Of a stretch of DNA of 32,000 bases, positions 2,111-29,137 are shown piece by piece (positions within the stretch are counted from its first letter, which is position 1; the number at the start of each line of letters is the position of its first letter). The stretch lies in assembly GCF_000014785.1 (NCBI RefSeq), contig NC_008340.1, forward strand, positions 1,680,001 to 1,712,000. The letters run 5' to 3'. Made by a program: the position numbers and the translations under genes. The notes beneath the pieces are model-generated. The model ran no database searches and had not been told where the DNA came from. It saw only the letters and a list, made by a program, of their open reading frames with translations. Source of the stretch: Alkalilimnicola ehrlichii MLHE-1. GTDB taxonomy: Bacteria; Pseudomonadota; Gammaproteobacteria; Nitrococcales; Halorhodospiraceae.

Positions 2111-4461
2111 GCGACGCCGGTACGCCACTGCCCATCGACGCCCTGCGCGCGGATTTCGCGCAGGCCCTGGCCGCGGGCCACGTGGTGGTTACGGCCGCCA
2201 CCGGGTCGGGGAAATCGACCCGGCTGCCGGTCTGGGCCCGGGAGCATGGCCGGGTACTGGTGGTCGAGCCGCGGCGGCTCGCCGCCACCAGCCTGGCCCG
2301 CTTTGTCGCCCGCACCCTGGACACCCGTCTCGGCGGCGGCGTCGGCTACGCCATCCGCCTGGATGCCCGCCACGGTCCCGATACCGAGGTGGTGTTTGCA
2401 ACCCCGGGGATTGCCTTGCGCTGGTATGGCGAAGACCGGCTGCGCGGCTTTACCACGGTGGTGCTGGATGAGTTTCACGAGCGGCGCTGGGATACCGACC
2501 TGCTGCTGGCGCTGCTCCAGGCCGGGGCGAGCCACCGCCTGGTGGTCACCTCGGCCACCATCGCCGGCGCCCGGCTGGCGCAACATCTAAGCGCACGGCA
2601 CCTCAGCTCCGAGGGCCGCAGCCATCCGGTGGACATCGAATACCGGGCCCCGCAGCCCCGCGCCATGCCGGAGACCCGGGACCTGGCGCGGCGGGTCGCC
2701 GGGGCCGTGCAGAGCACCCTGCAGGCCCAATCCGGCGATTGCCTGGTGTTCTTGCCCGGCAAGGGCGAGATCCAGGCCTGTTACCAGGCCCTAAAGGGGA
2801 TCGGGGCCACGGTGCTGCGGCTGCACGCCAGCGCACCGGCGGCGGATCAGGCGGCCGCGCTGGCAGCGCCGGCGCCCGATGCCCCGCCCCGGGTCATCCT
2901 CTCCACCAACGTGGCGGAGACCTCGCTGACCGTCCCCGGGATCACCGCGGTGATCGACAGCGGGCTGGAGCGGCGCACCCACCGTCGTAACGGACGCACC
3001 GTGCTCAGCCTGCAGCCCATCGCCCGCGCCAGCGCCGATCAACGGGCCGGCCGCGCCGGGCGCCTGCAACCGGGCCGCTGCCTGCGCCTCTGGGGCCATC
3101 AGGCACCGCTGGCCGCGGTCACCCCGCCCGAGATCCAACGCGAGGACCTCAGCGATCTGGTCCTTGCGGCCGCCTGCGCCGGGGCCCGGGCCGAGGCCCT
3201 GCCCTTCCCCGAGCCCCTGCCCGCACCGGCGTTGGAGCAGGCCGTGGCCGGCCTGAGGGCGCTGGGCGCCCTGGACCCGCAGGGCCGGGCCACCGAGCGG
3301 GGGCATCGGCTCTTTCAGCTCCCGGTGGACACCGAACTGGCGCACCTGGCGGTGGCCATGCCGGATACGGAGAGCGCCGGTTTCATGGCCGATCTGGCCG
3401 CCGCGCTCAGCACCGGGCGCCGCTGGGTTCAGCCGCCAGCCGACCCGGCGGACGAGGACGCGCTGGCCCGTGCCCTGCCCCGGCGCTGTGACGCCACCCT
3501 GCTGGTCGCGGCGTTGCGCCTCGACAAACTGCCGGGGGTGCGGGTGGACCGCGCCAGCCGCAAGGAGGCCCGGCGTCTGGCCGACCAACTCCGGGGGCTG
3601 ATGAACCTGCCCGCGCGGCCGGTAGCCCTGGAGGGGGACCCGACCGCGGCCTTTGCCGCAGCCGTCCGGGCCCTGCCCCGGCGCACCTACGTCCGGCGGG
3701 AGCGGCGCCGCCAGGCCATGGGCAACGGCGGTGATGAATTGTTGATCAGCGACCAATCGCGACTGGACCCCGAGGCCGAGGCGGCCCTCTGCCTGGATGA
3801 GCACAGCGTTCCGGGCCGGGGCACCCGCCAGACGGTGACCCTGGGAACCTGTCTCGCACCGGTCCCGCTGCAGGCCCTCCTCGACGCCGGGCTGGCGGAG
3901 GCCACCCTGCAGGCCCCCCGGCTGGAGGAGGGCCGGCTGCTGGCCCGGCGCAGTTGGCGGTACGCCGGCCGCACCCTCCACAGCGAGGACGTGGTGCCGG
4001 AGGGCGCCCCGGCACGGGAGGCCATGGCCGAACTGATCCTGGCCGACCGGCTGTTGCGACCAGCCGGCGCACGACTACGTGACGACCTCGCCGCCTGGGC
4101 GCTGTACGTGGCGCTGGGCCAGGGTCAGGGCACGGTGCCCTCCCCCCGGCCGTGGCTGGTGGAGCAGCTGACCGAGCTAGGGGTGGAGAACCAGGAGGAT
4201 CTGCAACTGATCGAGCCTGAGGACCTCGCGTTCGAGGGCGTGCCGGAATGGGAGCGGGCGCGCTTCGATGAGCACTACCCGCGCCGGATCCAGCTACCGG
4301 ACCTGCTGCTCCAGGTGCACTACGACGTGCGGCGCCGAGTCATCACTGTGGAGAAGGTCCGCGGCAGCCGCAAACGGGACCCGCAGCGCTGGGAGCTGCC
4401 GGCCTGGCCGGGGTGGCGGATCAAGTACCAACGCGCCAGCCGGGTGGTGGAGGTGCGGTGA
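2107..4461 (+). CDS. DEAH/HA2-type ATP-dependent helicase (HrpB-like N-terminal two thirds, unassigned C-terminal ~330 aa)
   Basis: 784 aa ORF. Motif [14 protein letters not shown], motif II DEFHER, motif III SAT, motif [12 protein letters not shown]2-like segment [42 protein letters not shown] 2107 overlaps the tex stop (ATGA). Confidence 0.85.
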
Positions 4462-4501: not shown

Positions 4502-5497
4502 TCAGCGGTATAGGCCGATCAGGCCGCGGGCCACCGTGGCGATCTCCTGTCGCAGCCGTTGCGGGCGCAGGACCTCCACCTTGTCCCCGAAACCGAGCAA
4601 CCACCAGCGCAACTGGTGGGTGTCCTCCACCTCGGCACGCACCCGTACCCAGCCGGAATCGCCCTGCTCCCGCTCCAACTGCTGGTCCGGAGCCAGGGGC
4701 GTCTCCTGCAGGTGGTAGCCGGCATCCGGGGCGAAGCGGGCCTCCAATTCGATGGCGCACGCGCCGGCGCGATAGTCGAACCCACCCTTGCGGATCCAGT
4801 CATCCAGGTCGAACCCCTCCGGCGTTCGCGCCGGCGCATCCAGGAGCCTGGCCGCCTGAAAGCGGTGCAGGGCCAGCGGCAGGACGTCCGGGTAATCCCA
4901 CAGCGACGCCACCAGGTAGGCCACCGCATCGCGGAAGGCCAGCCCCAGCGGGTTGACCCGGTACTGGCGCGGACCGCCGCTGCGGGGCACATAGGTGGCC
5001 TCCAAGCACCGGCCCTCGAGCAGCCCGTGATAGAGCACCTCCACCACGGCGGGCTGAACCTCCGGCGGGTGCAGGGGCTGATACCGCGGCAGGATGCGGA
5101 TGCGCTCACGCCACTGCGCCAATCGCCCCCCCGCCGTGCTCAACGCCCGCCTTGCCTGGAGGAAGTGGGGCTCCAGATGCTTGACCACCCCTTTCGGCAG
5201 CATGTCGCCCAGGTGCTCCTCGACCAGACAGAAGGTCAGCGCGGTCGGTGGGTCCATGTGTGGCAGTTCAATCAGGGCCCCATCGCCTTTCCAGGACCAT
5301 CCATGGGGTAGTTCCCGCTCATCGCAGATCAGCGGGAACATCGCCGAGAGCCGCTGCAGATCCCGCTGCACCGTCCGGTGGGTGACCGAGAAGCCCAGCT
5401 CTGCCAGCCGATTCCGGATCTGGGTGCTGGAGACCTTGCGGGGCTCCCGGGGGATCAGCCGGAGGGTCTGCAGGTGGCGAATGCTGGTTTCCGACAT
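4502..5497 (-). CDS. WYL-domain transcriptional regulator (wHTH-WYL-WCX architecture, YafY/CapW/BrxR-like)
   Basis: 331 aa. N-terminal wHTH VSSTQIRNRLAELGFSVTHRTVQRDLQRL. Central WYL-like block RVNPLGLAFRDAVAYLVASLWDYPDVLPLALHRFQAARLL. C-terminal WVRVRAEVEDTHQLRWWLLGFGDKVEVLRPQRLRQEI. GGAGGA sits 6 nt upstream of ATG (complement of 5495-5497). Confidence 0.85.
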   Translation of the reverse strand: MSETSIRHLQTLRLIPREPRKVSSTQIRNRLAELGFSVTHRTVQRDLQRLSAMFPLICDERELPHGWSWKGDGALIELPHMDPPTALTFCLVEEHLGDMLPKGVVKHLEPHFLQARRALSTAGGRLAQWRERIRILPRYQPLHPPEVQPAVVEVLYHGLLEGRCLEATYVPRSGGPRQYRVNPLGLAFRDAVAYLVASLWDYPDVLPLALHRFQAARLLDAPARTPEGFDLDDWIRKGGFDYRAGACAIELEARFAPDAGYHLQETPLAPDQQLEREQGDSGWVRVRAEVEDTHQLRWWLLGFGDKVEVLRPQRLRQEIATVARGLIGLYR

Positions 5498-5771: not shown

Positions 5772-6995
5772 ATGGAAAAGAACCCCGACAAAGGTTTTGT
5801 AGCCCTGCTGGGCTGGAGCCTGAACGCCGTTGAAGCCGCTGAGAACTTCGACCGGCGCTACGTGGTGGTGGCCCCGGACTGGGCCGAGGATTACTGTCAA
5901 CAGCACAATATCCCCTATGTGCCCTGGAACTTCGAGCGCCTCAACGACCGCTCAATGGAGATCGCCCAAACCCTCAAGGACATGGGCGTGGATGTCGCCA
6001 TCCCGCTGTTCGAAGAGACCGTGGAGTGGGCGGGGGCCATCAATGCGGTGTTGTTGGACAGCCCCAAGCTGCTGGGTCAATCGATGCTGCTGCGCGACAA
6101 GTCGCTGATGAAACGCCGCGCGCAGCTCGGCGGTATCCGGGTGGGCATCTTCGAGGAGGCCCATGACAAGGATGACGTCATCCGTTTTCTCAAGCGGGTC
6201 AACCAGACGCTGCTAAAGCTGGACGGCGATCCCAACGACCCCATCCACTTCAAGGCGTTCGACAAGGCCGGCTGCCTCGGCCATCGGGTCATCCGCACCC
6301 CGGATGACGTCGATACCATCCCCGAGGAGGAGTTTCCGGCGCTGATGGAGTCCCATCTGGACGGCTGGGAGTTCGCCGTGGAGGCGTGGGTCCAGAACGG
6401 CAAAATCCGCTTCATGAATATCTCCGAGTACGTCACCCTGGGCTACTCGGTGTTCGTGCCCGCCTCGCCGGAACTCGAGGCCCACCGGCCCGCCATCCGA
6501 AGGGAGCTGGAAAAGCTCATCAAGGCCTTCGACATCGAATTTGGCTTCGTCCACCCGGAGTACTTCGTCACCAACGACAACGAGATGTATTTTGGCGAAG
6601 TGGCCTACCGGCCGCCGGGCTTCAAGGTCTTCGAGCTGCTGGAGCGGGTCTACGGCTTCAACGCCTACCAGGGGCTGATCCTCTGCTTCGACCCCAAGAC
6701 CACCGAGGAGGAGATCACGGCCTTCTTCCCGCGCGAGGTGGTGGATGCGGATGGGCATGCCGGCTGTTTCGGCGTCTATCCGCGGCGCCGTGTGGTCAGC
6801 CGCCTGGAGATCCCGGAGGAGACCGAGAATCACCCCTACTTTGAGTCCCACGAGCTAACCCCGCCACTGGAGGAGACGGTGACCAAGCGCACCGCCTTCG
6901 GTACCCACTGGGGCCTGATTTACTTCCGCGGCGAGGACCCCCACGTGCTTCGGGATCTGCTGAAACACCAGGAGGATCTGGACTTCTACGTCTAG
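5772..6995 (+). CDS. ATP-grasp fold ligase (carboxylate-amine/amidoligase type), substrate unknown
   Basis: ORF 5712..6995. The preferred start is ATG 5772 (MEKNPDKG), preceded by AAGGAGG at 5761-5767. ATP-grasp landmarks: LLRDKSLMKRRAQLGGIRV, HFKAFDKAG (Lys strand), ESHLDGWEFAVEAWVQNGKIRF, and FVHPEYFVT...MYFGEVAYRPPG, which resembles the PurK/PurT-type EVAPRP Mg-ATP loop. Confidence 0.8.
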   Translation: MEKNPDKGFVALLGWSLNAVEAAENFDRRYVVVAPDWAEDYCQQHNIPYVPWNFERLNDRSMEIAQTLKDMGVDVAIPLFEETVEWAGAINAVLLDSPKLLGQSMLLRDKSLMKRRAQLGGIRVGIFEEAHDKDDVIRFLKRVNQTLLKLDGDPNDPIHFKAFDKAGCLGHRVIRTPDDVDTIPEEEFPALMESHLDGWEFAVEAWVQNGKIRFMNISEYVTLGYSVFVPASPELEAHRPAIRRELEKLIKAFDIEFGFVHPEYFVTNDNEMYFGEVAYRPPGFKVFELLERVYGFNAYQGLILCFDPKTTEEEITAFFPREVVDADGHAGCFGVYPRRRVVSRLEIPEETENHPYFESHELTPPLEETVTKRTAFGTHWGLIYFRGEDPHVLRDLLKHQEDLDFYV

Positions 6996-7036
6996 CGTTG
7001 CATTATGGAGCCAAACGACGCGGTCAGGGAGTCAGC

Positions 7037-9061
7037 GTGAGCGATCAGGATCATCCCGGGGTGCCACCGGAGGACAGGCTCCGTCCATTGCTGAAGCAAC
7101 TGGACGCGGCCATCCATGCCTTGGCGCAGTCCCCCACCTTCACCAAGGCCACCCGGCTGCCCCGGGTGCTGGACATCGCCCGCCGGGTGATGCTCCAGCC
7201 CGGGGGCTGCACGGCCGTCGAGGAGCGGGCCGCGGCGTTGGAAGAGGCCGGGGTCTTCGCCGGCTCGGACTGGGCCACCCCGGAGATCCTGGTGCCGACC
7301 CTGTCCACCCACGCCTTGGGCAGCCCCGATGCCAACACGGTCGTGGTGGAGGCCCTCAGCCAGTTGCGGATGCTCGCCGTGGCCACCGGCGGCTACACCC
7401 ACCCAACCCTGTCGTCAGAGCAGGCCCACCACTTTCTGACCCAGGTCCTGGCCCTGAACCTCAACTACCTCTTCCTGGCCCCCAGCGAGGCGGAGCGGAC
7501 CGCCCAGGGGCGCCTGGCGCAACTGCCAAGGGCGCTGTTCATGCACCTGGCAGAGCGCATCGGCTACGAGCACGTGATCGACCGGCTGATCGATGAGATC
7601 TGGCGCATCCTTCAGCAGCGTCCGATCCAGACCGAGGCGGTCAAGCGGATGGTCACCCAGATCGCCATCTGCCGCGCCAATCCGGCGATCGACCTGGGGG
7701 CCAGCGGCCACGGCGCGGAGCGGCTGGTCAGCAGCCTGTTCGGCCCTACCCAGGGGTGCCGGGAGGACCCCGGCGTGGCGGTCTATGAGCAGCGGCTGGC
7801 GAGTATGGACGGCGGCGCCCTGCAATCGGAGGCGATCGGTTTCGCCCGCGCCATGCACGACACCGGCCTGGTCTCCCCCTACCACCCGGTACTGCTCCGC
7901 TTCCTGCTCGGCCACGGTGATCACTTGGTGGCCGAGGCCATGGGGCTGTCCGCCACCGGGCGCGACTGTTTGCTCTGCTACTCCGACCTGGTCCGGGCAC
8001 TGATCAATGAAGCGGTCCACCCAGACACCGCTCAGGCGATATACGGCCTCGCCCTGCTGCTGGAGCGAGGCAGCCTGTACCAGCCGCCGGTGGCCCCCGC
8101 CCTGTGGCGTCAGCTGGCGCTGCCGCTGTCCGAATGGGCGCGAGAGCGGCTGCACGCGGCCACCGGCGCGACGGTCCATCCGGAGGCGCGGTTGCTGGAG
8201 GGGGTCCTCTGCCTGCTCGGGCAACCGCTGGGGGTGGGTCAGGGCAACAACCCCACCTGCCAGTCGGCGCGGGCCCTCTCCATGTGGGCCTACAACGACC
8301 CGGACTACCTGCTGCAGATGGTGGCCTGGGCGGCGCGCGATGACGAGATCATCATGCACTTCGAGGGCCAGCCCATATCATCGCGGGAGAGCGTTTCCGG
8401 TGTGGCCGATGAACTGCCCATGGACCTGGACCCGGTCTCGTTGCTGGTGGTCCCCCACCTAGACCGAATCTACGCCGAAATGGGACGCCGCTGTGCCAAC
8501 CGCCAGGGCGATCCCCACCGCTGGGTCAACCCGGAGTTCCACGGCTGGTGGGCAGGACGGGGTTTCCGCATCAACGTCGACGTGGACAGCGGCCGGCTTA
8601 CCGGCCTGGAGGACTTTCTCCGCCACTTCTACGCCTGCTACCACCCCTATTACAACGGCAATCAGCCCATTATTCATCCGCAGCCCGCGGGCGTGGCGGT
8701 CACCGACAGTGCCGCCCGGTTCATCGGCTGGCACGCCATCACCCTGCTCCGCGTGGCCCTCGACCCTTCCAACGTCATGCGGGTCTATTTCTACAATCCC
8801 AACAACGACAGCGGCCAGGACTGGGGGGATGGGGTGACGGTGAGCACCGCCGGTAACGGGGAGTACTACGGCGAGGCCTCCCTGCCCTTTCCGCAATTTG
8901 CCTCACGGCTCTACATCTTTCACTACGATCCGCTCGAGCGCGGCGAGCTGGCACGAATCAGCCAGGCGGAATTGGACGAGGTCGTCGGCCACATCCAGCG
9001 CAGCTGGGGGGCGGACCGCCTGCCGGAGATCGGCGACGGCGCCTGGACCCAGCAGCGGTAG
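7037..9061 (+). CDS. Large hypothetical protein: helical N-terminal ~400 aa plus C-terminal papain-like (clan CA-like) thiol peptidase/transglutaminase-like signature
   Basis: ORF 6998..9061 (687 aa from TTG 6998). GTG 7037 is preferred because GGGAG lies at 7027-7031. The gene starts 3-42 nt after the ATP-grasp stop, so it is probably in the same operon. Motifs: GQGNNPTCQSARALSMWAY (Gln415, Cys421 = nt 8258-8260) and GWHAITLLRVALDPSNVMRVYFYNPNNDSG (His579 = nt 8732-8734). No family recognised by eye. Confidence 0.75.
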   Translation: MSDQDHPGVPPEDRLRPLLKQLDAAIHALAQSPTFTKATRLPRVLDIARRVMLQPGGCTAVEERAAALEEAGVFAGSDWATPEILVPTLSTHALGSPDANTVVVEALSQLRMLAVATGGYTHPTLSSEQAHHFLTQVLALNLNYLFLAPSEAERTAQGRLAQLPRALFMHLAERIGYEHVIDRLIDEIWRILQQRPIQTEAVKRMVTQIAICRANPAIDLGASGHGAERLVSSLFGPTQGCREDPGVAVYEQRLASMDGGALQSEAIGFARAMHDTGLVSPYHPVLLRFLLGHGDHLVAEAMGLSATGRDCLLCYSDLVRALINEAVHPDTAQAIYGLALLLERGSLYQPPVAPALWRQLALPLSEWARERLHAATGATVHPEARLLEGVLCLLGQPLGVGQGNNPTCQSARALSMWAYNDPDYLLQMVAWAARDDEIIMHFEGQPISSRESVSGVADELPMDLDPVSLLVVPHLDRIYAEMGRRCANRQGDPHRWVNPEFHGWWAGRGFRINVDVDSGRLTGLEDFLRHFYACYHPYYNGNQPIIHPQPAGVAVTDSAARFIGWHAITLLRVALDPSNVMRVYFYNPNNDSGQDWGDGVTVSTAGNGEYYGEASLPFPQFASRLYIFHYDPLERGELARISQAELDEVVGHIQRSWGADRLPEIGDGAWTQQR

Positions 9062-9421
9062 TCAGCCCCCCTCCCCATTGGGGCGGGCGAAGACCAGCAC
9101 GCCGGACTGGCTGGACTGCAGGATACCGCCAAAGGGCAGCGGCTGCTCCGCACCCGCCTCGAGGTAGGGACGCAGGGGCTCGAACGGAGCGTCCCGCTTT
9201 AGCAGATAGGCCTCGCACTGGTGGCCGAAGGGGAAGTCCTGCTCGGAGAAGCAATACCAGAAATAACGGGGCCCCCAGGGGGTGTCCAGCCGGGCCTCGT
9301 ACACCCGGTGGTACATCCGCTCCTCGTACTTCCAGTCCCGTGCATTCACACTCCGAAACGCCAGTGTCACTGCGTCCTGTCCCGCCCCGACGGTATAGCT
9401 GTGCGGGTTATCTCTCCACAT
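9062..9421 (-). CDS. Hypothetical protein, 119 aa, Trp/Tyr/Phe-rich, no recognisable domain
   Basis: ORF 9062..9448 (TTG start). ATG at the complement of 9419-9421 is preferred, with GGAG 7 nt upstream. Third-position GC is high and the amino-acid composition looks globular. Its stop is directly adjacent to the stop of the 7037..9061 gene. Confidence 0.6.
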   Translation of the reverse strand: MWRDNPHSYTVGAGQDAVTLAFRSVNARDWKYEERMYHRVYEARLDTPWGPRYFWYCFSEQDFPFGHQCEAYLLKRDAPFEPLRPYLEAGAEQPLPFGGILQSSQSGVLVFARPNGEGG

Positions 9422-9620
9422 TGGTGCACTCCGGTCGTTGGTCGACAATGGCAGCAGACATTACCGTACTGGACCGCCCGATACCATTACCAATAAGCCA
9501 CTATGCCGTTCGGCGTGGTCCGCACGCCCCGGCACGGAGCCGGCCACTGCCCATCCACTTGCAAGCCCCCGAAAAACTGCCAGCATAGATTGTGTACCCC
9601 CACCCGCAGCGGAGTACCCC

Positions 9621-10013: not shown

Positions 10014-10090
10014 TGGCGCGCCCGGGAAGATTCGAACTCCCAACCTCCTGATCCGTAGTCAGGTGCTCTATCCAGTTGAGCTACGGGCGC
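10014..10090 (-). tRNA. tRNA-Arg (anticodon ACG)
   Basis: Reverse complement is GCGCCCGTAGCTCAACTGGATAGAGCACCTGACTACGGATCAGGAGGTTGGGAGTTCGAATCTTCCCGGGCGCGCCA, 77 nt. It folds as a cloverleaf with anticodon loop CU-ACG-GA, T-loop GTTCGAATC and an encoded CCA. Confidence 0.95.
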
Positions 10091-10136
10091 CGAAAGAGCG
10101 CTTATTATGCCTAGCGCCGCAGGCCTCGTCAATGCC

Positions 10137-10228
10137 TGGCGGAGAGAGAGGGATTCGAACCCTCGATGGGCGTTTAAGCCCATACTCCCTTAGCAGGGGA
10201 GCGCCTTCAGCCACTCGGCCATCTCTCC
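10137..10228 (-). tRNA. tRNA-Ser (anticodon GCU), long variable arm
   Basis: Reverse complement is GGAGAGATGGCCGAGTGGCTGAAGGCGCTCCCCTGCTAAGGGAGTATGGGCTTAAACGCCCATCGAGGGTTCGAATCCCTCTCTCTCCGCCA, 92 nt. Acceptor GGAGAGA/TCTCTCC, anticodon loop CU-GCU-AA, class II variable arm. Confidence 0.95.
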
Positions 10229-10675: not shown

Positions 10676-11926
10676 TCAGGCGTTGTCGCCTTCCACTTCC
10701 ACCTGGGCGTTCTCATCGTCGAGGCCGAAGGCGGTGTGCAGCGTGCGCACGCCCAGCTCGAGATACTTCTCGTCCACCACCACCGAGATCTTGATCTCGG
10801 ATGTGGAGATCATCTGGATGTTGATGCCCTCGGCCGACAGTGCCTTGAACATGGTGCTGGCCACCCCGGCGTGGGACCGCATGCCCACACCCACCAGTGA
10901 GAGCTTGACGATCTTCGGATCGCCGTAGATCTCCCGGGCACCCAGCTTGTCCTTGTTGTCCTGCAGGATCTTCAGCGCCTGCTCGTAATCCCGCTTGTGG
11001 ACGGTAAAGGTAAAGTCCGTCGCCCCGGAGGTGCTGACGTTCTGAATGATCATGTCCACCTCGATCCCCGCGTCGGAGATCGGGCCCAGGATGCTGGCGG
11101 CGATCCCGGGGACGTCCGGCGCGCCGAGCACGGTGAGCTTCGCCTCGTCACGATTGAAGGCAATGCCGGAGATCAGTGGTTCTTCCATTGGATTTTCCTC
11201 ATAGGTGATCAGCGTGCCAGGGCCTTCCTTGAAACTGGAAAGCACGCGCAGCGGCACCTTGTATTTCCCCGCAAACTCGACCGACCGGATCTGCAGGACC
11301 TTGGAGCCCAGGCTGGCCAGTTCCAGCATCTCCTCCACGGTGATCCGCTCCAGCCGGCGTGCCTTGGGCACCACCCGGGGGTCGGTGGTGTAGACCCCGT
11401 CCACGTCAGTGTAGATCTGGCACTCGTCGGCCTTCAGCGCCGCCGCGATGGCCACCGCAGTGGTATCGGACCCGCCCCGGCCGAGGGTGGTGATAGCGCC
11501 CGACTCGTCCACACCCTGGAAACCCGCCACGACCACCACGCGACCAAGACGCAGGTCGTCGTTGATCTGCTTGGCGTCGATGTCCAGGATCCGGGCGCGG
11601 CTGTGGGCGCTGTCGGTGAGGATGCGCACCTGCGGGCCGGTGTAGCAGCGGGCCGGCGTGCCGATGCTCTCCAAGGCCATTGTAAGCAGCGCGATGGTGA
11701 CCTGTTCCCCCGTGGAGACCAGCACATCCACCTCGCGAGCGGGCGGATTGGGCCCGATTTCCTCGGCCAGCGCCAGCAGGCGGTTGGTCTCGCCGCTCAT
11801 GGCGGAGACCACCACGACGACATCGTCCCCGCGCTCGCGACTGGCCTGGACCCGCCGGGCCACATTCTTGATTCTTTCGGTGGTGCCCACAGAGGTCCCA
11901 CCGTATTTCTGTACGATCAGTGCCAT
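10676..11926 (-). CDS. lysC: Aspartate kinase
   Basis: 416 aa. MALIVQKYGGTSVGTTERIKNVARRV, GRGGSDTTAVAIAAAL, and C-terminal ACT-domain repeats. Confidence 0.95.
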   Translation of the reverse strand: MALIVQKYGGTSVGTTERIKNVARRVQASRERGDDVVVVVSAMSGETNRLLALAEEIGPNPPAREVDVLVSTGEQVTIALLTMALESIGTPARCYTGPQVRILTDSAHSRARILDIDAKQINDDLRLGRVVVVAGFQGVDESGAITTLGRGGSDTTAVAIAAALKADECQIYTDVDGVYTTDPRVVPKARRLERITVEEMLELASLGSKVLQIRSVEFAGKYKVPLRVLSSFKEGPGTLITYEENPMEEPLISGIAFNRDEAKLTVLGAPDVPGIAASILGPISDAGIEVDMIIQNVSTSGATDFTFTVHKRDYEQALKILQDNKDKLGAREIYGDPKIVKLSLVGVGMRSHAGVASTMFKALSAEGINIQMISTSEIKISVVVDEKYLELGVRTLHTAFGLDDENAQVEVEGDNA

Positions 11927-11994
11927 ATTCTCTGAATTCGCAAAAGGGTAATTAAACTACAAATCTACCTGGTTTGAAAACCTGACCACAAGCC

Positions 11995-14604
<2,610 letters not shown>

Positions 14605-14652
14605 GTACTTGCCGTTGTCCGTTAGCCCGGCCGGTTTGGCCGGTGGTTGCCG

Positions 14653-15111
14653 TTAATCGGGCTGTGCCGCCGCCGACATCACCTGCCGGATATGCCCGGC
14701 GGCAAACCCCCTTCGTTCCAGATAGCGCTGCTGCCGGGCCCGCTCCCGCAGGTCCGCCGGGGCCGTCCCAAAACGGCGGGCCCACACCTGACGGGCCAGG
14801 TCTGCCCAGTCGATCTGCCGCTCCACCTCTGCCAATGCCGGGCCGGCCACGGCATCGGCCACGCCCCGCTCGCGCAACTCGGCACGGATCCGCAGCGGCC
14901 CGTACCCCTGCTCCACACGGTGGCGGACCCAGCTCTCGGCATAGCGGGCGTCGCTCTGCAGCCCCTCCTGCGCCAAGCGGGCGATGACGGCGTCGGCCAG
15001 TTCCTCGGGAACCCCTCGCCGGGTCAGCTTGAAGGCGAGTTCGCGGACGGAATGCTCACGCCGCGCGAGCAGGCGGATGGCCTGCTCGCGCACCTCGGCT
15101 TCGCGCTCCAA
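14653..15111 (-). CDS. recX: RecA regulator RecX
   Basis: The C-terminal 150 aa of ORF 14653..15267 match RecX repeats (AIRLLARREHSVRELAFKLTRRGVPEELADAVIARLAQEGLQSDARYAESWV...). The ORF-track start overlaps recA. I prefer TTG at the complement of 15109-15111, 7 nt after the recA stop, with AGGAGG upstream. The start is uncertain (the GTG at 15093 is also possible). Confidence 0.8.
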   Translation of the reverse strand: MEREAEVREQAIRLLARREHSVRELAFKLTRRGVPEELADAVIARLAQEGLQSDARYAESWVRHRVEQGYGPLRIRAELRERGVADAVAGPALAEVERQIDWADLARQVWARRFGTAPADLRERARQQRYLERRGFAAGHIRQVMSAAAQPD

Positions 15112-15118
15112 GGCGGCC

Positions 15119-16162
15119 TCAGGCCTCCTGACCGCTTTCGGTGCCCTGGGCCTCGCTGGATGGGGCCCGCCCGGGCAGCAGCTTGTCGCGGATCTGCTTT
15201 TCCAGTTCCGCGGCCAGTTCCGGGTGCTCTTTGAGGTAGTTGCGGACGTTGTCTTTGCCCTGGCCAATGCGGTCGCCGTTGTGGCTGTACCAGGCCCCGG
15301 CCTTCTCGATCAGGCCCTCCTTGACACCCAGGTCGATCAACTCCCCCTCGTGGGAGATACCCTGGCCGTAGAGGATCTCGAACTCCGCCTGCTTGAACGG
15401 CGGCGCCATCTTGTTCTTGACCACCTTGACCCGGGTCTCGTTGCCCAGGACCTCGTCGCCCTTCTTGATGGCACCCAGGCGACGGATATCCATGCGCACC
15501 GAGCTGTAGAATTTCAGCGCGTTACCCCCGGTGGTGGTCTCGGGGCTGCCGAACATTACCCCAATCTTCATGCGGATCTGATTGATGAAGATAACCAGGG
15601 TGTTGGAGCGTTTGATGTTGGCGGTGAGCTTGCGCAGGGCTTGGGACATCAGCCGCGCCTGCAGGCCCACGTGAGAGTCGCCCATCTCGCCCTCGATCTC
15701 GGCCTTGGGCGTGAGCGCGGCGACCGAGTCCACCACCACCACGTCCACGGCGCCGGAACGGACCAGCATGTCGGTGATCTCCAGCGCCTGCTCGCCGGTG
15801 TCCGGCTGGGAGACCAGCAGGTCGTCCAGGTTGACCCCCAGCTTCTCTGCGTAGTCGGGGTCCAGTGCGTGCTCGGCGTCGACGAAGGCGGCGGTGCCGC
15901 CCGCCTTCTGCGCCTCGGCGATCGCGTGCAGGGTCAGGGTGGTCTTGCCGGAGGACTCCGGGCCGTAGATCTCCACCACCCGCCCCTTGGGCAGGCCGCC
16001 CACGCCCAGGGCGATATCGAGCTGCAGCGAGCCGGTGGAGATGACCTCCACGTCGCCGCGCACGGCGCGGGCATCACCCATGCGCATGACCGCGCCCTTG
16101 CCAAACTGCCGTTCGATCTGTCCCAGGGCAGCGCCCAGTGCTTTCTTGCGATTTTCGTCCAT
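15119..16162 (-). CDS. recA: Recombinase RecA
   Basis: 347 aa. [24 protein letters not shown], Walker [45 protein letters not shown]. Confidence 0.98.
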
Positions 16163-16173
16163 GTGCGGCCCTC

Positions 16174-16187
16174 GTGAACCGGTTCAC
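16174..16187. promoter_or_regulatory. Perfect 14 bp palindrome GTGAACCGGTTCAC immediately upstream of the recA Shine-Dalgarno
   Basis: The minus strand reads GTGAACCGGTTCAC-GAGGG-CCGCAC-ATG(recA). This is a GAAC-N2-GTTC core. Its function is unknown; it could be an operator or a 5' UTR hairpin. Confidence 0.3.
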
Positions 16188-16295
16188 AAACGGGTGCCCG
16201 CCACTCCCGGCGCCGGGCGTAAAGGGGGGACATTATTCCATACTAGGCCTGGGTCTCGCACCCTTGCGTGGGAGACGGCGCCGGCGGCGCCAACC

Positions 16296-16802
16296 CTAGC
16301 CGGCGTCGCCGCCGAGGCGCTCCCGGAGACCATCCAAGGCCAGGGCCACGGCCTCCCGGCGCACGGCCTCGCGATCACCGGCGAACAGGCGGCGCTCGCA
16401 ACAGACGCGCCCGCTCGGCAGGGCCCAGCCGAACCAGACCAGGCCCACCGGTTTCTCCGCCGTGCCACCCGTCGGACCCGCCACACCGCTGACCGACAAC
16501 GCCGCATTGGCGCCGGAGCGTTCGCGGGCGCCGGCCGCCAAGGCCTCGACCACCGGTGCGCTGACCGCCCCGTGGCGTGCCAGCAGCGCCTCCGGCACAC
16601 CGAGATCGGCCACCTTGGCGGCATTGGAGTAGACAATCCAACCGCGCTCGAACCAGTCGGAGCTCCCGGCCAGATCGGTGATCACCTTGCCGATCCAGCC
16701 CCCGGTGCAGGACTCGGCCACCGCCAACCGCCATTGCCGGCGCGTGAGCAGCTCGGCCAGGCGCCCGGCCCGTTCCGCCAGGGCCGCATCATCGTTTAGC
16801 AT
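16296..16802 (-). CDS. pncC: Nicotinamide-nucleotide amidohydrolase PncC / CinA C-terminal domain protein
   Basis: 168 aa. [38 protein letters not shown] is the CinA/PncC signature. The position upstream of recA matches E. coli and Pseudomonas. Confidence 0.9.
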
Positions 16803-16848
16803 GAGCCCCCTTCCCCTTTACGGCAGTCGATGGAGCATAACCAGCACA

Positions 16849-19485
16849 ATGGCCCAGTCCAGTCCCAAGGCATCGTCGCGGCATACGCCCATGATGCGCC
16901 AGTTCCTGCGCATCAAGGCCGAACACCCGGACATCCTGCTCTTCTACCGGATGGGCGATTTCTACGAACTATTCTACGAGGATGCCGAACGGGCCGCGAA
17001 GCTGCTGGACATCACCCTGACCACCCGCGGGCAGTCCGCCGGCGAACCCATCCCCATGGCCGGCGTGCCGGTGCACGCGGTGGAGAGCTATCTGGCGCGG
17101 CTGGTGCGCCAGGGCGAATCGGTGGCCATCTGCGAACAGATCGGCGACCCGGACAACAGCAAGGGCCCGGTGGAGCGGCAGGTGGTGCGTATCGTCACCC
17201 CCGGCACCCTGACTGACGAGGCCCTGCTCGAGGAACGTCAAAGCAACATCCTGGCGGCCCTGAGCTGCCATCAATCGCGCTGGGGGCTGGCCAGCCTGGA
17301 GCTCTCCAGCGGCCGGTTCAGCCTCACCGAACCTGCCGACGAGCAGGCCCTTGCCGCCGACCTGGAGCGGCTGAACCCCGCCGAGTTGCTGGTGGACGAG
17401 GCGCTCACCCTGCCCACGGGCCTGGCCGTGGGGCCGGGGCTCACCCGCCGGCCACCCTGGCACTTCGAGCTCGATACCGCAACCGACCTACTCACAGAGC
17501 AGTTCGGCACCCGCGATCTGGCCGGCTTCGGCGCCCAGGACCACAGCGCAGGGCTCGCCGCCGCCGGCGCCCTGCTCCAGTACGTCCGTGAGACCCAGCG
17601 CTCCGCCCTGCCCCATATCCGCAGGCTGCAGGTGGAACACGGCGATCAGGCCATCGTCATCGACGCCGCCAGCCGCCGGAACCTTGAGCTGGAACGCAAC
17701 CTCTCCGGGGGCACCGAACACACCCTTGCCTCGGTGCTGGACAGTACCGTCAACGCAATGGGCAGCCGCCTGCTGCGCCGCTGGCTCAACCGCCCGCTGC
17801 GCGACCGCACCACCCTGCAGGCCCGCCACCAGGCCGTGGAGATCCTGATGGCCGAGTCCCTGACCGAGGCGCTTCGCCGCCAGCTCCGGGGAATCAGCGA
17901 CGTGGAGCGCATCCTTGCCCGGGTGGCATTGGGCAGCGCCCGGCCCCGGGATCTCACTGGCCTGCGGGAGACGCTCGCCCGGCTCCCGGACATCCAGGCC
18001 ACCCTCACCGGTGCCGGCGCTCCTCGGCTGGTGGACCTGGCGGCGCAGTGCGGGGAACACCCGCAGACCCTGGACCACTTGCGCCGCGCCCTGGTGGACC
18101 AGCCACCGGTGGTGATCCGCGACGGCGGGGTCATCGCCGAAGGCTATGATGCGACCCTGGATGAGTTGCGGACGCTTTCAGAAAACGCCGATAACTACTT
18201 GTTGGAACTCGAACAACGCGAGCGGGAACGCACGGGGATCAGCACCCTGAAGGTGGGTTATAACCGGGTACACGGCTACTACATCGAGGTCACCCGCGCC
18301 CAGGCTGATGCGGTGCCCGCCGAGTATGTCCGACGCCAGACCCTCAAAGGGGTGGAGCGCTATATCCTCCCTGAACTCAAGGCCTTCGAGGACAAAGTGC
18401 TGTCGGCACGTGAAAAGGCCCTGGCCCGCGAGAAGGTCCTCTATGAGCAATTGCTCGCCAGCCTGGCCAGCGACCTGGCGCCGCTTCAGGACACCGCCGC
18501 GGCACTGGCGGAGCTGGACACCCTGGCCGCCTTCGCGGAACGCGCGCAGGCGCTGGACTACTCTCGCCCGGAACTGCGCGATGGGGCGGGACTGCGCATT
18601 GAGGCCGGCCGGCACCCGGTGGTGGAATACAGCCTCGACGGCCCCTTCGTCCCCAACGACCTGACACTGGACGACCGCAGGCGGATGCTGATCATCACCG
18701 GGCCCAACATGGGGGGCAAGTCCACCTATATGCGCCAGGTGGCGCTGATCACCCTGATGGCGCATATCGGCAGTTTTGTACCGGCGCGCGCCGCCAGCCT
18801 GGGCCCGGTGGATCGGATCTTCACCCGGATCGGCGCCTCCGACGACCTGGCCGGTGGCCGCTCCACCTTCATGGTGGAGATGACCGAGACGGCGAACATC
18901 CTGCACAACGCCACCGCGCAAAGCCTGGTGTTAATGGACGAAATCGGGCGAGGCACCAGCACCTTCGACGGCCTGGCCCTGGCCTGGGCGACCGCCGAAC
19001 GGCTGGCCCGCGACCAGCGCGCCTACACCCTTTTCGCCACCCACTATTTCGAGATGACAGCGCTGCCCGAGCAATGTCCCGGTGCCAGCAACGTCCACCT
19101 GGATGCCGTGGAGCACGGCGAGCGCATCGTCTTTCTGCATGCGGTCAAACCCGGCCCGGCGAGCCAGAGCTACGGCCTCCAGGTGGCCGCGTTGGCGGGC
19201 GTCCCCGGGCCGGTGCTGGAGGCCGCCCGCGAGAAGCTGCGGGCGCTCGAAGAGGAGAGTTCCCGCCAGAGGGCCGAGCCGGATCAGCTCTCACTCTTCG
19301 CGGAACCGGCGCCGCCCCCACCCCTGCCCAGTGCCGCCGAGCAGGCGCTGTCGGAGGTGGACCCGGACGAACTCTCACCCCGCCAGGCCCTGGACCTGCT
19401 CTACCGTCTGAAGGCGTTGACCAGTGGCGAGGAAGGGGCGGACAAAAAGGCGCGGGGCGATGCAGTCGATGCCCGGAGTCGCTAG
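16849..19485 (+). CDS. mutS: DNA mismatch repair protein MutS
   Basis: The internal ATG 16849 of ORF 16678..19485 gives [42 protein letters not shown], the canonical MutS N-terminus. Walker A is [13 protein letters not shown]. The gene is divergent from pncC with a 46 bp gap. Confidence 0.97.
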
Positions 19486-26301: not shown

Positions 26302-26495
26302 AGTTAGCGTTCTCAGCTTATTCATTATCAATATAAGGGACGTGGCCGGATGGCGACTCGAACCTTCCCGGTCAGAGCGCTCTTTACGGAGCACTGCACT
26401 ATATTTTCCGGCGGATAGGGATCACTGGCCGGCCATCCTTGGAAAGGACACGCGTCAACCAGATGCAAGAAGCGCCAGAGGGCGCGGAGGAGATA

Positions 26496-27866
26496 ATGAG
26501 CAACCGTAGCATCAAAACAGAACGCGCAATCCATAAAGCGCTTACCGAGGCAGGTCTGTCCCGTCGTGATTTCCTGCGCTACTCCGGTGTCGGCGCCATC
26601 GGCGCCAGCGCCGTTATGGGCACCGGCGCCCTGCTGCACAGCGGCGAGGCCCAGGCGGTCACCACCAATGCCCGCGTGGTCATCGTAGGCGCCGGCGCGG
26701 CCGGTATCTCCTGTGCCAACCGCCTCAACCGCCAGCTCCGGGGCGCCGATATCACCGTCATCGACCGCCGGGAAGACCACCAATACCAACCCGGTCTGAC
26801 CCTGGTGGCCACCGGCGTCTGGGAGCGCGATAAGGTCGTCGACCGCAACGCCAACTTCCTGCCCTCGGGCGTGAACTGGGTCAAGGCCATGGTCAAGGAG
26901 TACGACCCCGACAACAATCGGGTGATCACCGATGACGGTCAGACCATCGAGTATGACTACCTGATGGTGGCCACCGGGCTGCAGGTCAACTACGACGCCT
27001 ACGAAGGCTACAGCCGCGAGCTGATCGGCGACCATGGCATCGGCTGCGTCTATGACAACGCGGATCATGCCGCCCGCACCTGGCGCCAGATCGACCGCTT
27101 TACCCAGAGCGGCGGCAAGGGCCTGTTCATCCGCCCGCCCGGTGCCATCAAGTGCGCCGGCGCGCCGCTGAAGGTCACCATGCTGACCGAGGACCGTCTG
27201 CGCCGCCGCGGCACCCGTGCCAATACCGAAATGCACTATTTCGCGCCGGGCACCGGGATGTTCTCCCAGCCGGATATCGACGAGTTCCTCAAGGGGCACT
27301 TCCCGGAGCGCGATATCAACCTGCACTGGCACCACGTGGTCAAGGGCATCGACCCGGCGGCCCAGGAGGTGGTCTTCGATACCCCCGACGGTGAGCGTAC
27401 GGAGGATTACGACTTCATCCACCTGGTGCCGCCGATGAGCGCGCCCGACAGCCTGCGCAACAGCGCCCTGGCCGCCGGCGAGGACAGCAACTTCACCGGC
27501 TGGCTGGAGGTGGACCGTTACACCATGCAGCACCAGCGCTACGAGAATGTCTTTGGCGCCGGTGACATCAACGGCGTGCCGATCGGCAAGACGGCCGCCA
27601 GCGTCAAGGCGCAGGTGCCGGTCGCCGTGAATAACATGGTGTCCCACATGCAGGGGCGGGAGATGACCGAGTCCTATGACGGCTACACCTCCTGCCCGCT
27701 GATCACCGGTATTGGCAAGGCGATCCTGGTGGAGTTCGATTACAACCTGGACATGGTGCCGTCCTTCCCCTTCATCAGCCCCTACGACGAGCACTGGGTG
27801 CCCTGGGTGATGAAGGACCGCCTGCTGCATGGCGCCTACAACGCCATGATGCGCGGCCGGGTATAA
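26496..27866 (+). CDS. sqr: Type II (SQOR-like) sulfide:quinone oxidoreductase with Tat signal peptide
   Basis: The internal ATG 26496 of ORF 26439..27866 is preceded by GGAGGAG (26486-26492). Twin-arginine motif LSRRDFLRYSG. FAD fold VVIVGAGAAGISCANRL. HQYQPGLTLV. Redox cysteines in AIKCAGAPLKV and YDGYTSCPLITGIGKAILVEFDY match, from memory, the human SQOR motifs IKCAGAP and YTSCPLVTG. Confidence 0.85.
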   Translation: MSNRSIKTERAIHKALTEAGLSRRDFLRYSGVGAIGASAVMGTGALLHSGEAQAVTTNARVVIVGAGAAGISCANRLNRQLRGADITVIDRREDHQYQPGLTLVATGVWERDKVVDRNANFLPSGVNWVKAMVKEYDPDNNRVITDDGQTIEYDYLMVATGLQVNYDAYEGYSRELIGDHGIGCVYDNADHAARTWRQIDRFTQSGGKGLFIRPPGAIKCAGAPLKVTMLTEDRLRRRGTRANTEMHYFAPGTGMFSQPDIDEFLKGHFPERDINLHWHHVVKGIDPAAQEVVFDTPDGERTEDYDFIHLVPPMSAPDSLRNSALAAGEDSNFTGWLEVDRYTMQHQRYENVFGAGDINGVPIGKTAASVKAQVPVAVNNMVSHMQGREMTESYDGYTSCPLITGIGKAILVEFDYNLDMVPSFPFISPYDEHWVPWVMKDRLLHGAYNAMMRGRV

Positions 27867-27902
27867 CGCCGCCCCGGTATCGGACGAATCCAAAGGAGGA
27901 AA

Positions 27903-28298
27903 ATGATCATGGCCTTTTCGTTGATGGGTATTATTACAGTCGTGCTGGAGGTCTTCCGGGGCCTGCTGCCGTTCGTTCTGCTCTGGGTGGTCATCGACCT
28001 GGCGCTGCTTGGCCTGTTTATTGCCCGCAAGTCCTCCCGCAGCGTCAACCTGGCGCTGCCGGTGAAGGCGTCGGTGGGGGTTGGTGTGGTGGTGGCCGTA
28101 GTGGCCTTCATCATGCTGCCCGGCTTCACTGGTGCCAGCTTCGCCAACCTGAGCGGCGCGCTGGACTATCTCTCCCTGATCGGCGGCAGCATCGGCTTTG
28201 GCGTGGCCTTCGGCGTCCTCGCCTTCCCGCCGCTGCTCTACGTCCTTGGCCTGGGCCCCAGCGAGAGCCACGCCGGGAGCACTGCCACCCAGTCCTGA
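27903..28298 (+). CDS. Small integral membrane protein (about 4 TM helices), co-transcribed with sqr
   Basis: 131 aa. AAAGGAGGA lies immediately upstream of ATG 27903. Hydrophobic segments: FSLMGIITVVLEVF, LLPFVLLWVVIDLALLGLFIA, VGVGVVVAVVAFIMLPGF, LSLIGGSIGFGVAFGVLAFPPLLYVL. Confidence 0.75.
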   Translation: MIMAFSLMGIITVVLEVFRGLLPFVLLWVVIDLALLGLFIARKSSRSVNLALPVKASVGVGVVVAVVAFIMLPGFTGASFANLSGALDYLSLIGGSIGFGVAFGVLAFPPLLYVLGLGPSESHAGSTATQS

Positions 28299-28322
28299 CC
28301 GGCCCATCCGCCGGTGACACCA

Positions 28323-28357
28323 AGCCCCGGGGGCCCGCCCCGGGGCTTTTGCGTTTT
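28323..28357 (+). terminator. Rho-independent terminator of the sqr operon
   Basis: 10 bp stem AGCCCCGGGG (28323-28332), loop GCCCG, stem CCCCGGGGCT (28338-28347), followed by TTTTGCGTTTT. Confidence 0.85.
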
Positions 28358-28468
28358 CACAAGGTATGATTCCGGTCAACAAATGGTACGCTGTTAGCGA
28401 GGCCACCCCGTAGTCGGACGGGTGAAATGGGGCCGGCCTCTCACGGTACGGCGAGAAGAGGGCGCCAC

Positions 28469-29137
28469 ATGGAAACGGGTTCCCCAGGCTACCGCGTGGG
28501 GACGGCCGACCCGCTTACCCGGGGCGATCCGGCGGATTGGCTGCAGGCGTTGCGCGACGGCACGCGGGCCGCTCACCAGCGGGTAGAAAGCCACCCCGTA
28601 CTCCTGCCGCTGCAATCGGATCGGCTCACCATGGCGCAGTATCGCCGGGCGCTAGCGGTCTTTCTCGCCTATTTCGCCGCCCTGGAGGCGGTGTTACCCC
28701 CCTGGCTCGAACGCTTCCCGCAAGCGGGCTACCGCTACCTGCCGCGCCACCCCCTGATTCGGCGCGACCTGATGGATATCGGTGCCGTACTGCCAGAGGG
28801 CCATTCGGGCGCCGTTCCCCAGCTGATCTCGCGCAACCACCTGCTGGGCGTGCTCTACGTGCTGGAAGGGGCCACCCAGGGCGGCCGTGTGATCGCGCCC
28901 CGCCTGCAGCGGCGGCTCGGACTCGATGCCCGGCGCGGGGCGCGCTACTTTCATCTCTACCACGCCGGCCAATGGCGCAGCTTCCGGGCGTCGCTCGGCG
29001 GGGCTGCCCCCCGGGGCGGGCTTGAACAGGCACTCGCCGGGGCGCGGTCGACCTTCCATGCCCTTGAGGCGCACCTCGCTGCAGCTAATAGCGAACAGCC
29101 CAAGGAGAGCCTCCATGGCGCCTACCGACCCCTCTGA
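28469..29137 (+). CDS. bphO: Heme oxygenase (biliverdin-producing, BphO-like)
   Basis: ORF 28427..29137. LRDGTRAAHQRVESHP (proximal His helix) and LYVLEGATQGGRVIAP are heme-oxygenase-like. It lies directly upstream of, and overlaps, a bacteriophytochrome gene. The start is ATG 28469 (GAGGG 6 nt upstream) or ATG 28427. Confidence 0.8.
   Translation: METGSPGYRVGTADPLTRGDPADWLQALRDGTRAAHQRVESHPVLLPLQSDRLTMAQYRRALAVFLAYFAALEAVLPPWLERFPQAGYRYLPRHPLIRRDLMDIGAVLPEGHSGAVPQLISRNHLLGVLYVLEGATQGGRVIAPRLQRRLGLDARRGARYFHLYHAGQWRSFRASLGGAAPRGGLEQALAGARSTFHALEAHLAAANSEQPKESLHGAYRPL

Follow-up and report, generated by a model that had tools for sequence, protein, structure and literature searches.

Within a 32,000-nucleotide stretch of Alkalilimnicola ehrlichii MLHE-1 DNA (the window; contig NC_008340.1, positions 1,680,001 to 1,712,000), an open reading frame (ORF) directly downstream of an ATP-grasp gene encodes a protein of 687 amino acids, hereafter the target protein. 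Its predicted structure makes it very probable that the C-terminal third functions as a cysteine hydrolase of the papain/calpain fold, which would use Gln415, Cys421, His579 and Asn600. The reading that we modestly favour combines an α-solenoid of ~390 amino acids, a divergent clan-CA hydrolase fused to it, and an ATP-grasp partner that would act on the same amide bond as the hydrolase. Taken separately, the presence of a papain-fold active site is highly likely and functional coupling of the target protein to the ATP-grasp enzyme is likely; the notion that a ligase and a hydrolase or transferase share one amide bond is put forward tentatively.

The target ORF was translated from a TTG codon, giving the 687-residue numbering used here. 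The true start is probably a GTG at codon 14 (nucleotide 7037), since a GGGAG Shine-Dalgarno sequence lies 5′ of this codon and the identical database entry contains 674 amino acids. Model outputs follow the 674-residue scheme, in which numbers are 13 lower, and the alternative start leaves the active-site finding unchanged. Translation placed the candidate residues in the contexts GQGNNPTCQSARALSMWAY (Gln-Cys), GWHAITLLRV (His), LDPS (Asp) and VYFYNPNNDSG (Asn). These were exactly the positions and contexts named in the original prediction, made from the window sequence, of a divergent papain-like Gln/Cys/His/(Asp or Asn) domain at the C-terminus, and the distance from Cys to His was the 158 residues it had claimed.

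Conservation was assessed in an alignment of 43 diverse full-length homologs sharing 29-52% identity with the window protein. Gln415, Gly416, Cys421 and Pro601 were each present in 43/43 sequences, and His579 and Asn600 were each found in 42/43. Asp589 (26/43) and Pro590 (28/43) fell in a variable, indel-rich hairpin turn. Only 77 of the 674 alignment columns were conserved at ≥90%, and four of the five nominated residues lay within this set, Asp589 being the fifth; by a binomial estimate the chance of at least four of five doing so is P ~8e-4, indicating at the level of sequence that the Gln/Cys/His/Asn signature is under strong selection. The original prediction had left the third catalytic residue as either Asp589 or Asn600. 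Because Asp589 was kept in just 26 homologs and Asn600 in 42, the predicted third residue is Asn600 and Asp589 was rejected; the homolog comparison thus sustained the nomination of Gln415, Cys421, His579 and Asn600 and went against that of Asp589. Mean column identity was 52% in the C-terminal domain versus 40% over the whole protein. Further invariant charged residues were D478, R585, R595, E622 and E626, and the N-terminal domain contained the conserved polar residues E118 and R124 and a Q207-R208-P209 motif.

The sole exception at His579, representative P0186 from Mesobacillus zeae, has lost Asn600 and the ATP-grasp neighbour too, and is the one examined member that lacks this neighbour and stands outside the three-gene variants described below. 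At this locus (L005/L006, 6001-7836) an orphan, degenerate member carries Leu in place of His579 and Ser in place of Asn600, without an ATP-grasp gene; it is divergent from an LPG_synthase_TM (MprF-like) gene and lies upstream of an amino-acid ATP-binding cassette (ABC) transporter.

These patterns bear on the idea that the protein is a non-catalytic scaffold or pseudo-enzyme of papain-like fold that binds or chaperones the ATP-grasp enzyme. Such a role would suit conservation over the whole length of the protein and the invariant C-terminal tail of the partner, both of which fit a tight complex. However, pseudo-enzymes typically lose catalytic residues, whereas here Gln and Cys are invariant, His and Asn persist in 42/43 homologs down to 29% identity, and all four residues are kept in both of the tandem paralogs found at loci L091 and L007. 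We therefore regard a pseudo-enzyme as highly improbable.

An AlphaFold2 (AF2) model of the full-length protein, built on the 43-sequence alignment, was confident (predicted local distance difference test score (pLDDT) 92.4, predicted template-modelling score 0.91) and contained only helices up to ~residue 435 (674-residue numbering), in agreement with the original expectation of ~400 helical N-terminal residues. In the model helix 408-420 starts with Cys421 (C408 in 674-residue numbering), His579 (His566) lies within strand 562-575 and Asn600 (Asn587) directly follows strand 581-586. As in clan-CA peptidases, the modelled Cys thus begins a helix and is preceded by Gln at a distance of six residues, with the His on a strand and the Asn after the next one, so that the order and placement of the four elements in the prediction are those of canonical papain.

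Residues 391-687 were also modelled alone (pLDDT 91.2). Foldseek searches with this isolated domain returned clan-CA cysteine peptidases as nearly all of the top ~30 matches in the PDB. The best was m-calpain (3df0_A; probability 0.97, E = 2.9e-3, 299 aligned columns, template-modelling (TM) score 0.38), and further neighbours included 3bow_A, the calpain-I core 1kxr_B, cathepsin B, falcipain-3, ananain, bromelain and staphopains A and C. In BFVD, an independent library of viral models, the neighbours were a Lausannevirus papain-like peptidase, a Tupanvirus cathepsin L2 and a Marseillevirus papain-family protease (best E 5.8e-4). The structural matches of the modelled domain are marginal in score, yet they agree in indicating one fold. 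Conservation, the modelled layout and these clan-CA neighbours together support the prediction of a divergent papain-like domain. With the full-length model the top matches were weak, non-significant armadillo, HEAT and karyopherin repeats aligned to the N-terminal half; the solenoid dominated the list, and papain-family proteases were scattered among the weak PDB matches.

At the level of sequence, the C-terminal domain belongs to none of the C1, C2, C39, C58 or transglutaminase-like families, since no link to any of them was found by hidden Markov model (HMM) or profile (phmmer and hmmsearch against the PDB; Pfam; NCBIfam). A PDB profile search with the C-terminal domain retrieved no calpain, and Transglut_core and related models gave no match save one to PF20085 TGL (E = 0.34, one member), which was dismissed as noise, as were matches to PPR repeats. 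Alignments by hhalign to the calpain-1 core, to papain and to a six-sequence C1 profile, five of whose sequences were provisional, gave a spurious 'SWG' as their sole match.

By motif and spacing the nearest resemblance is to calpain, and this apparent resemblance is confined to motifs. Around Gln and Cys the family reads Q-G-x-N-P-T-C, compared with Q-G-A-L-G-D-C in calpain-1 and Q-G-S-C-G-S-C in papain. Around His it reads x-H-A-[VI]-[ST] (also given as H-A-[VIY]-[ST]), against G-H-A-Y-S in calpain-1 (HAYS) and D-H-A-V-A in papain (HAVA), and around Asn Y-F-x-N-P, with N-P-N in the consensus, against M-R-N-P-W-G and I-K-N-S-W-G. The Cys-to-His spacing of 158 residues is close to the 157 of calpain-1 (134 in papain), and that from His to Asn is 21, compared with 24 and 16, respectively. 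The suspicion that the long Cys-His spacing marked an odd insertion was accordingly dropped.

The calpain core (MEROPS C2, PF00648) offers the best structural neighbour, with a Cys-His-Asn triad and a Gln six residues before the Cys. Unlike calpain, the family shows no detectable sequence or profile similarity to that core (TM ~0.38), carries an N-terminal α-solenoid instead of the accessory C2-like and penta-EF-hand domains, is bacterial, and is encoded beside an ATP-grasp gene. Papain, cathepsins and staphopains (MEROPS C1, C47) recur among the top structural matches and share the residue order and the QG-x4-C and H-A-V motifs, but the L-subdomain of the family is much larger (158 versus 134 residues from Cys to His), and the family lacks a pro-peptide, an evident signal peptide and the disulfide cysteines.

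The original prediction had instead likened the domain to C39 or C58 (YopT-type) peptidases, and a Cys-His-Asp triad completed by Asp589 would imply leader-peptide processing or effector-like cleavage. C39 and C58 peptidases also have a Q-x5-C sequence followed by a helix. The papain-like fold, the Gln six residues upstream of a helix-starting Cys and the D589-P of the window copy all agree with this comparison. However, the poorly conserved Asp589 sits in the indel-rich turn and the predicted third residue is Asn600, not the Asp of a D-P motif. In the members scanned, PF03412 and PF03543 were unmatched and no Pfam model matched even at E ≤ 10, and the structural neighbours were calpain (C2), cathepsins and staphopains (the papain group, C1), with neither C39 nor C58 among them. 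No ABC transporter, precursor peptide or secretion context is conserved near the family genes, and by eye the N-terminus is unlike a signal peptide. The likeness to C39 and C58 did not hold, and a peptidase of either type is very unlikely. The same absence of a signal-like N-terminus suggests that the target protein is cytoplasmic.

The gene directly upstream of the target encodes an ATP-grasp enzyme of 407 amino acids, predicted from its profile matches to be a carboxylate-amine ligase of the L-amino-acid-ligase type. Its frame is open from 5712, and the ATG at 5772, which is preceded by GAAGGAGG, is likely to be the start, since an 86%-identical orthologue from Arhodomonas also has 407 amino acids. 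The window copy matched PF13535 (ATP-grasp_4) with E = 5e-5 and 23.3 bits, below the gathering score of 27, and precomputed Pfam records gave PF13535 for partner orthologues, weakly in one. A profile of the partner family matched the L-amino-acid ligase RizA (4wd3; E = 2.1e-8), the PurD-like enzyme 4dim (E = 1.7e-6) and the L-amino-acid ligase BL00235 (3vot; E = 3.9e-5). The partner ends in a tail, [LV]-D-[FY]-Y-[VIL]-COOH, that was present in 82/84 intact copies, some of them only ~46% identical overall; in the window it occupies the last five codons before the stop. So conserved a terminus suggests that the tail either docks onto the target protein or resembles a substrate of it.

An orthologue of the ATP-grasp gene, with 45-87% identity, was found directly upstream of the target in 84/89 loci. 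The pairing persisted in loci with unrelated flanks whose target shares just 33-38% identity with the window protein, and the two genes overlapped by 17 nucleotides in locus L003 and by 4 in L008. The two genes, on the same strand, probably form one operon. None of the odd-length representatives proved to be a fusion of the two proteins; the unusual length of P0166 was an artefact of a frameshift, and in P0222 the helical N-terminus is divergent.

Four of the five unpaired loci (L044, L051, L057 and L080) retain, immediately 5′ of the target, the 3′ end of an ATP-grasp gene, 15-50 codons long (up to ~100 in L051) and located at ~3530-3960 in the respective locus, and in L078 the gene order is reversed. 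The remnants argue for secondary loss or disruption of the ligase in a small number of genomes of Vreelandella, Guyparkeria and Marinobacter. Variation of another kind was seen in a spore-forming Firmicute (L091, 1643-6788), where the ATP-grasp gene is followed by a long paralog of the target (~653 amino acids) and then by a short one (595-613 amino acids) without the C-terminal helix. The same tandem pair of paralogs occurs in Chondromyces (L007, 45-3977), where the contig ends before any upstream gene would be seen.

The strength of this pairing has to be set against the possibility that the target protein is a calpain-like regulatory endoprotease acting on cellular proteins, with the ATP-grasp enzyme acting elsewhere or regulating or modifying the protease or its target, and hence with no bond common to both enzymes. 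A calpain protease core is the best structural neighbour, a large α-solenoid suits protein-protein recognition, in a few genomes only an ATP-grasp remnant accompanies the target, and the invariant -D-F-Y-V tail of the partner could be a docking or cleavage site. On the other hand, the pairing is near-obligate (84/89) and in different phyla the two genes overlap or lie close together, which favours a common pathway, and in a single case loss of His and Asn coincides with loss of the ATP-grasp gene. We consider such an endoprotease unlikely.

From the residues and the fold we infer a catalytic activity for the favoured pair of hydrolase and ligase, which could proceed as follows. The ATP-grasp enzyme would use ATP, by way of an acyl-phosphate, which is the intermediate of the general ATP-grasp mechanism, to join an amino acid or amine to the carboxylate of a peptide, a protein terminus or a small metabolite. 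Cys421, at the N-terminus of its helix, would be the nucleophile, with Gln415 forming the oxyanion hole, His579 on its β-strand serving as the general base and Asn600 orienting the His. Attack of Cys421 on the amide or peptide bond made by the ATP-grasp enzyme would yield a thioester acyl-enzyme, to be resolved either by water (an amidase, 'deligase' or 'eraser') or by an amine (a transpeptidase). The helical solenoid might recognise the substrate or bind the ligase partner. A shared substrate and the direction of the reaction are likewise part of the proposal.

Precedents exist for such a pairing. Glutathionylspermidine synthetase/amidase and tubulin tyrosine ligase (TTL) with vasohibin each match an ATP-grasp-type ligase with a papain-superfamily enzyme that removes the same group, which is the ligase/remover logic proposed for the module of ATP-grasp and target genes. 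In contrast to these systems, the target protein has no detectable CHAP or vasohibin homology, and the module places the two activities on separate polypeptides. Iyer et al. (2009, Mol Biosyst) are said to have described bacterial operons of Alpha-E, a circularly permuted ATP-grasp and a transglutaminase-like peptidase, reportedly with a predicted role in peptide modification. Those operons are likewise widespread and unite an ATP-grasp amidoligase, an all-α domain and a papain-superfamily thiol peptidase. The module proteins, however, have no Pfam match to Alpha-E, CP_ATPgrasp or Transglut_core, and differ in that peptidase and helical domain form one polypeptide and that the ATP-grasp enzyme is of the L-amino-acid-ligase type.

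Papain-fold transacylases are also established, among them phytochelatin synthase, CtaG, BtrH and AdmF. Cooperation between ATP-grasp and papain-fold enzymes is documented for CtaD with CtaG in closthioamide biosynthesis (PMC7183216), and in CtaD/CtaG and the butirosin and andrimid enzymes, as proposed here, an ATP-grasp enzyme and a clan-CA Cys-His-Asp/Asn enzyme form or transfer an amide (PMC7183216). Unlike the module, these pathways are thiotemplated and depend on a decarboxylase and on carrier proteins, for which no conserved counterpart accompanies the module; CtaG is moreover small and C39/BtrH_N-like, whereas the target protein has ~670 amino acids with a solenoid and a calpain-like core. 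A thiotemplated pathway of the CtaD/CtaG type found no support, as no carrier-protein or decarboxylase family is conserved in the flanks.

In a broader form of this comparison, the target protein would be not a hydrolase but a biosynthetic transacylase, transpeptidase or polymerase, in which Cys421 passes an acyl or peptidyl intermediate from the ATP-grasp enzyme to an amine. The product would be a peptide-type metabolite, possibly used in osmoadaptation given the bias towards halophiles and marine bacteria. In addition to the documented cooperation of papain-fold transacylases with ATP-grasp enzymes, the partner resembles dipeptide-forming L-amino-acid ligases, the invariant charged residues D478, R585, R595, E622 and E626 suggest a small zwitterionic substrate, and the close clade comes mainly from halophilic and marine Gammaproteobacteria. 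One distant locus lies beside arginine-biosynthesis and GNAT genes. Yet the module has no conserved companion in the form of a carrier protein, decarboxylase or exporter, its flanks differ from lineage to lineage, and the bias towards halophiles may just reflect which loci score highest with a query taken from one. An exclusively biosynthetic enzyme of this kind is thus improbable. At the distant locus (L008, 1-5004) the module stands directly downstream, on the same strand, of two GNAT genes and of argB-like, argD-like and ArgJ genes. From this single case, a substrate related to ornithine, arginine or glutamate may be surmised.

Several observations weigh against a clan-CA hydrolase that shares an amide bond with its ATP-grasp partner. 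The target protein has no Pfam, NCBIfam, PADLOC or PDB sequence match, and scans of 43 and 32 members gave no Pfam match at E ≤ 1 and E ≤ 10, respectively. The hhalign probability against the calpain-1 core was 0.2%, and papain likewise gave no alignment in the catalytic region (references 100% identical to PDB chains 7w7o_A and 1khp_A, respectively). Foldseek found no PDB match at E ≤ 1e-3 for the isolated domain (TM ≤ 0.38) and no significant PDB match at all for the full-length model. Across loci the pair is accompanied by no conserved third gene, precursor peptide or carrier protein, and neither a riboswitch nor a conserved leader was found upstream of the operon. Finally, the hydrolase may act independently of the ligase, a possibility raised by the few genomes that keep the target without an intact ATP-grasp gene. 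With respect to the flanks, no small ORF within 1.2 kb on either side of the module was conserved across loci, and no flanking ORF family was conserved beyond synteny local to Halomonadaceae (at most 22 loci). A graspetide or other ribosomally synthesized and post-translationally modified peptide system found no support, there being no conserved precursor-peptide ORF and no conserved leader. Literature searches for the module of ATP-grasp and target genes found nothing.

The target family is large. Matches to the target protein comprised 2,716 clusters at 90% identity and 279 at 50% identity, nearly all of the latter full-length (~610-690 amino acids), and at least 586 species genomes carry a relative; all copies are named "hypothetical protein" in their sources. 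The module is spread over Gammaproteobacteria, Actinobacteria (Nocardia), Firmicutes and Myxococcota, with the closest clade concentrated in halophilic and marine Gammaproteobacteria. It is chromosomal: the only match in the plasmid set was a 1.83-Mb Halomonas replicon, and the module was not found on ordinary plasmids or in phages. Six Nocardia assemblies carry it (L075, L079, L082, L084, L085 and L088, on contigs of 28-590 kb), and between Nocardia and Gammaproteobacteria the target proteins are 70-72% and the ATP-grasp proteins 81-84% identical. This is far above expectation between phyla and suggests horizontal spread, very strong constraint, or both.

A more specific and doubtful extension of the ligase/hydrolase proposal is that the module is a hitherto unrecognised, horizontally spread 'writer/eraser' (or writer/transferase) system. 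It would tag a highly conserved metabolite or protein of the cell with an amino acid or peptide and take the tag off again. By analogy, it would be a bacterial counterpart of TTL/vasohibin or of glutathionylspermidine synthetase/amidase. Such a system could explain the 70-87% identity of both proteins between Gammaproteobacteria and Nocardia.

The remaining features of the window are listed with those of the module below. The regulator upstream of the module matched the WYL models of PADLOC and was beside the module in no other locus examined, and the putative 128-amino-acid ORF downstream had no counterpart beside the module in the 89 other loci; neither of these, nor a phasin-like gene of the window, travels with the module. 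The PADLOC defence models matched neither module protein, and an anti-phage defence reading was rejected on that ground and because the module keeps no WYL neighbour at other loci. The housekeeping block also contains, by eye from translations, putative aspartate kinase and alanyl-tRNA synthetase genes, and confirms a chromosomal gammaproteobacterial context with ~67% guanine plus cytosine.

Table 1. Positions of the module, its predicted functional elements and other features in the window
Feature	Position	Strand	Description
HTH-WYL-WCX transcriptional regulator	4502-5497	-	Divergent from the module
ATP-grasp partner gene	5772..6995	+	407 amino acids, predicted L-amino-acid-ligase type; directly upstream of the target
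Partner C-terminal tail	6978-6992	+	Last five codons before the stop
Target ORF	6998..9061	+	687 amino acids from TTG; 674 from the probable GTG start at 7037
N-terminal domain	7037..8167	+	Residues 14-390; all-α, solenoid-like in the AF2 model
C-terminal domain	8168..9061	+	Residues 391-687; predicted papain/calpain-fold cysteine hydrolase (AF2 domain model and Foldseek)
Gln415 codon	8240..8242	+	Predicted oxyanion-hole residue, 6 residues before Cys
Cys421 codon	8258..8260	+	Predicted nucleophile
His579 codon	8732..8734	+	Predicted general base
Asp589-Pro590 codons	8762..8767	+	Alternative third residue, rejected
Asn600-Pro601 codons	8795..8800	+	Asn600, predicted third member of the triad
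128-amino-acid ORF	9062-9448	-	Convergent; ends one base after the target stop; no Pfam match
Housekeeping block	10014-10228 (-), 10676-19485		tRNA-Arg(ACG), tRNA-Ser(GCU), RecA, MutS
691-amino-acid ORF	26328-28406	-	No Pfam match
Bacteriophytochrome-type sensor	28926-31184	+	PAS_2-GAF-PHY fused to a GGDEF diguanylate cyclase domain

Taken together, the predicted structures and gene neighbourhoods suggest that the target proteins constitute a new, unannotated and deeply divergent clan-CA family, with a new architecture, in which a solenoid is joined to a calpain-like core, and a new operon partner. Recognition of the family as calpain-like Cys-His-Asn hydrolases would add both a clan-CA family and a domain architecture to those known. 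The family is of interest as it is widespread and highly conserved and has gone without annotation, and its near-obligate pairing with an ATP-grasp enzyme of the L-amino-acid-ligase type makes the predicted function directly testable. Should one and the same amide bond be formed and cleaved by the pair, this would represent a new bacterial ligase/deligase system or a new peptide-metabolite pathway, and such a pathway would sit in industrially used halophiles such as Halomonas.

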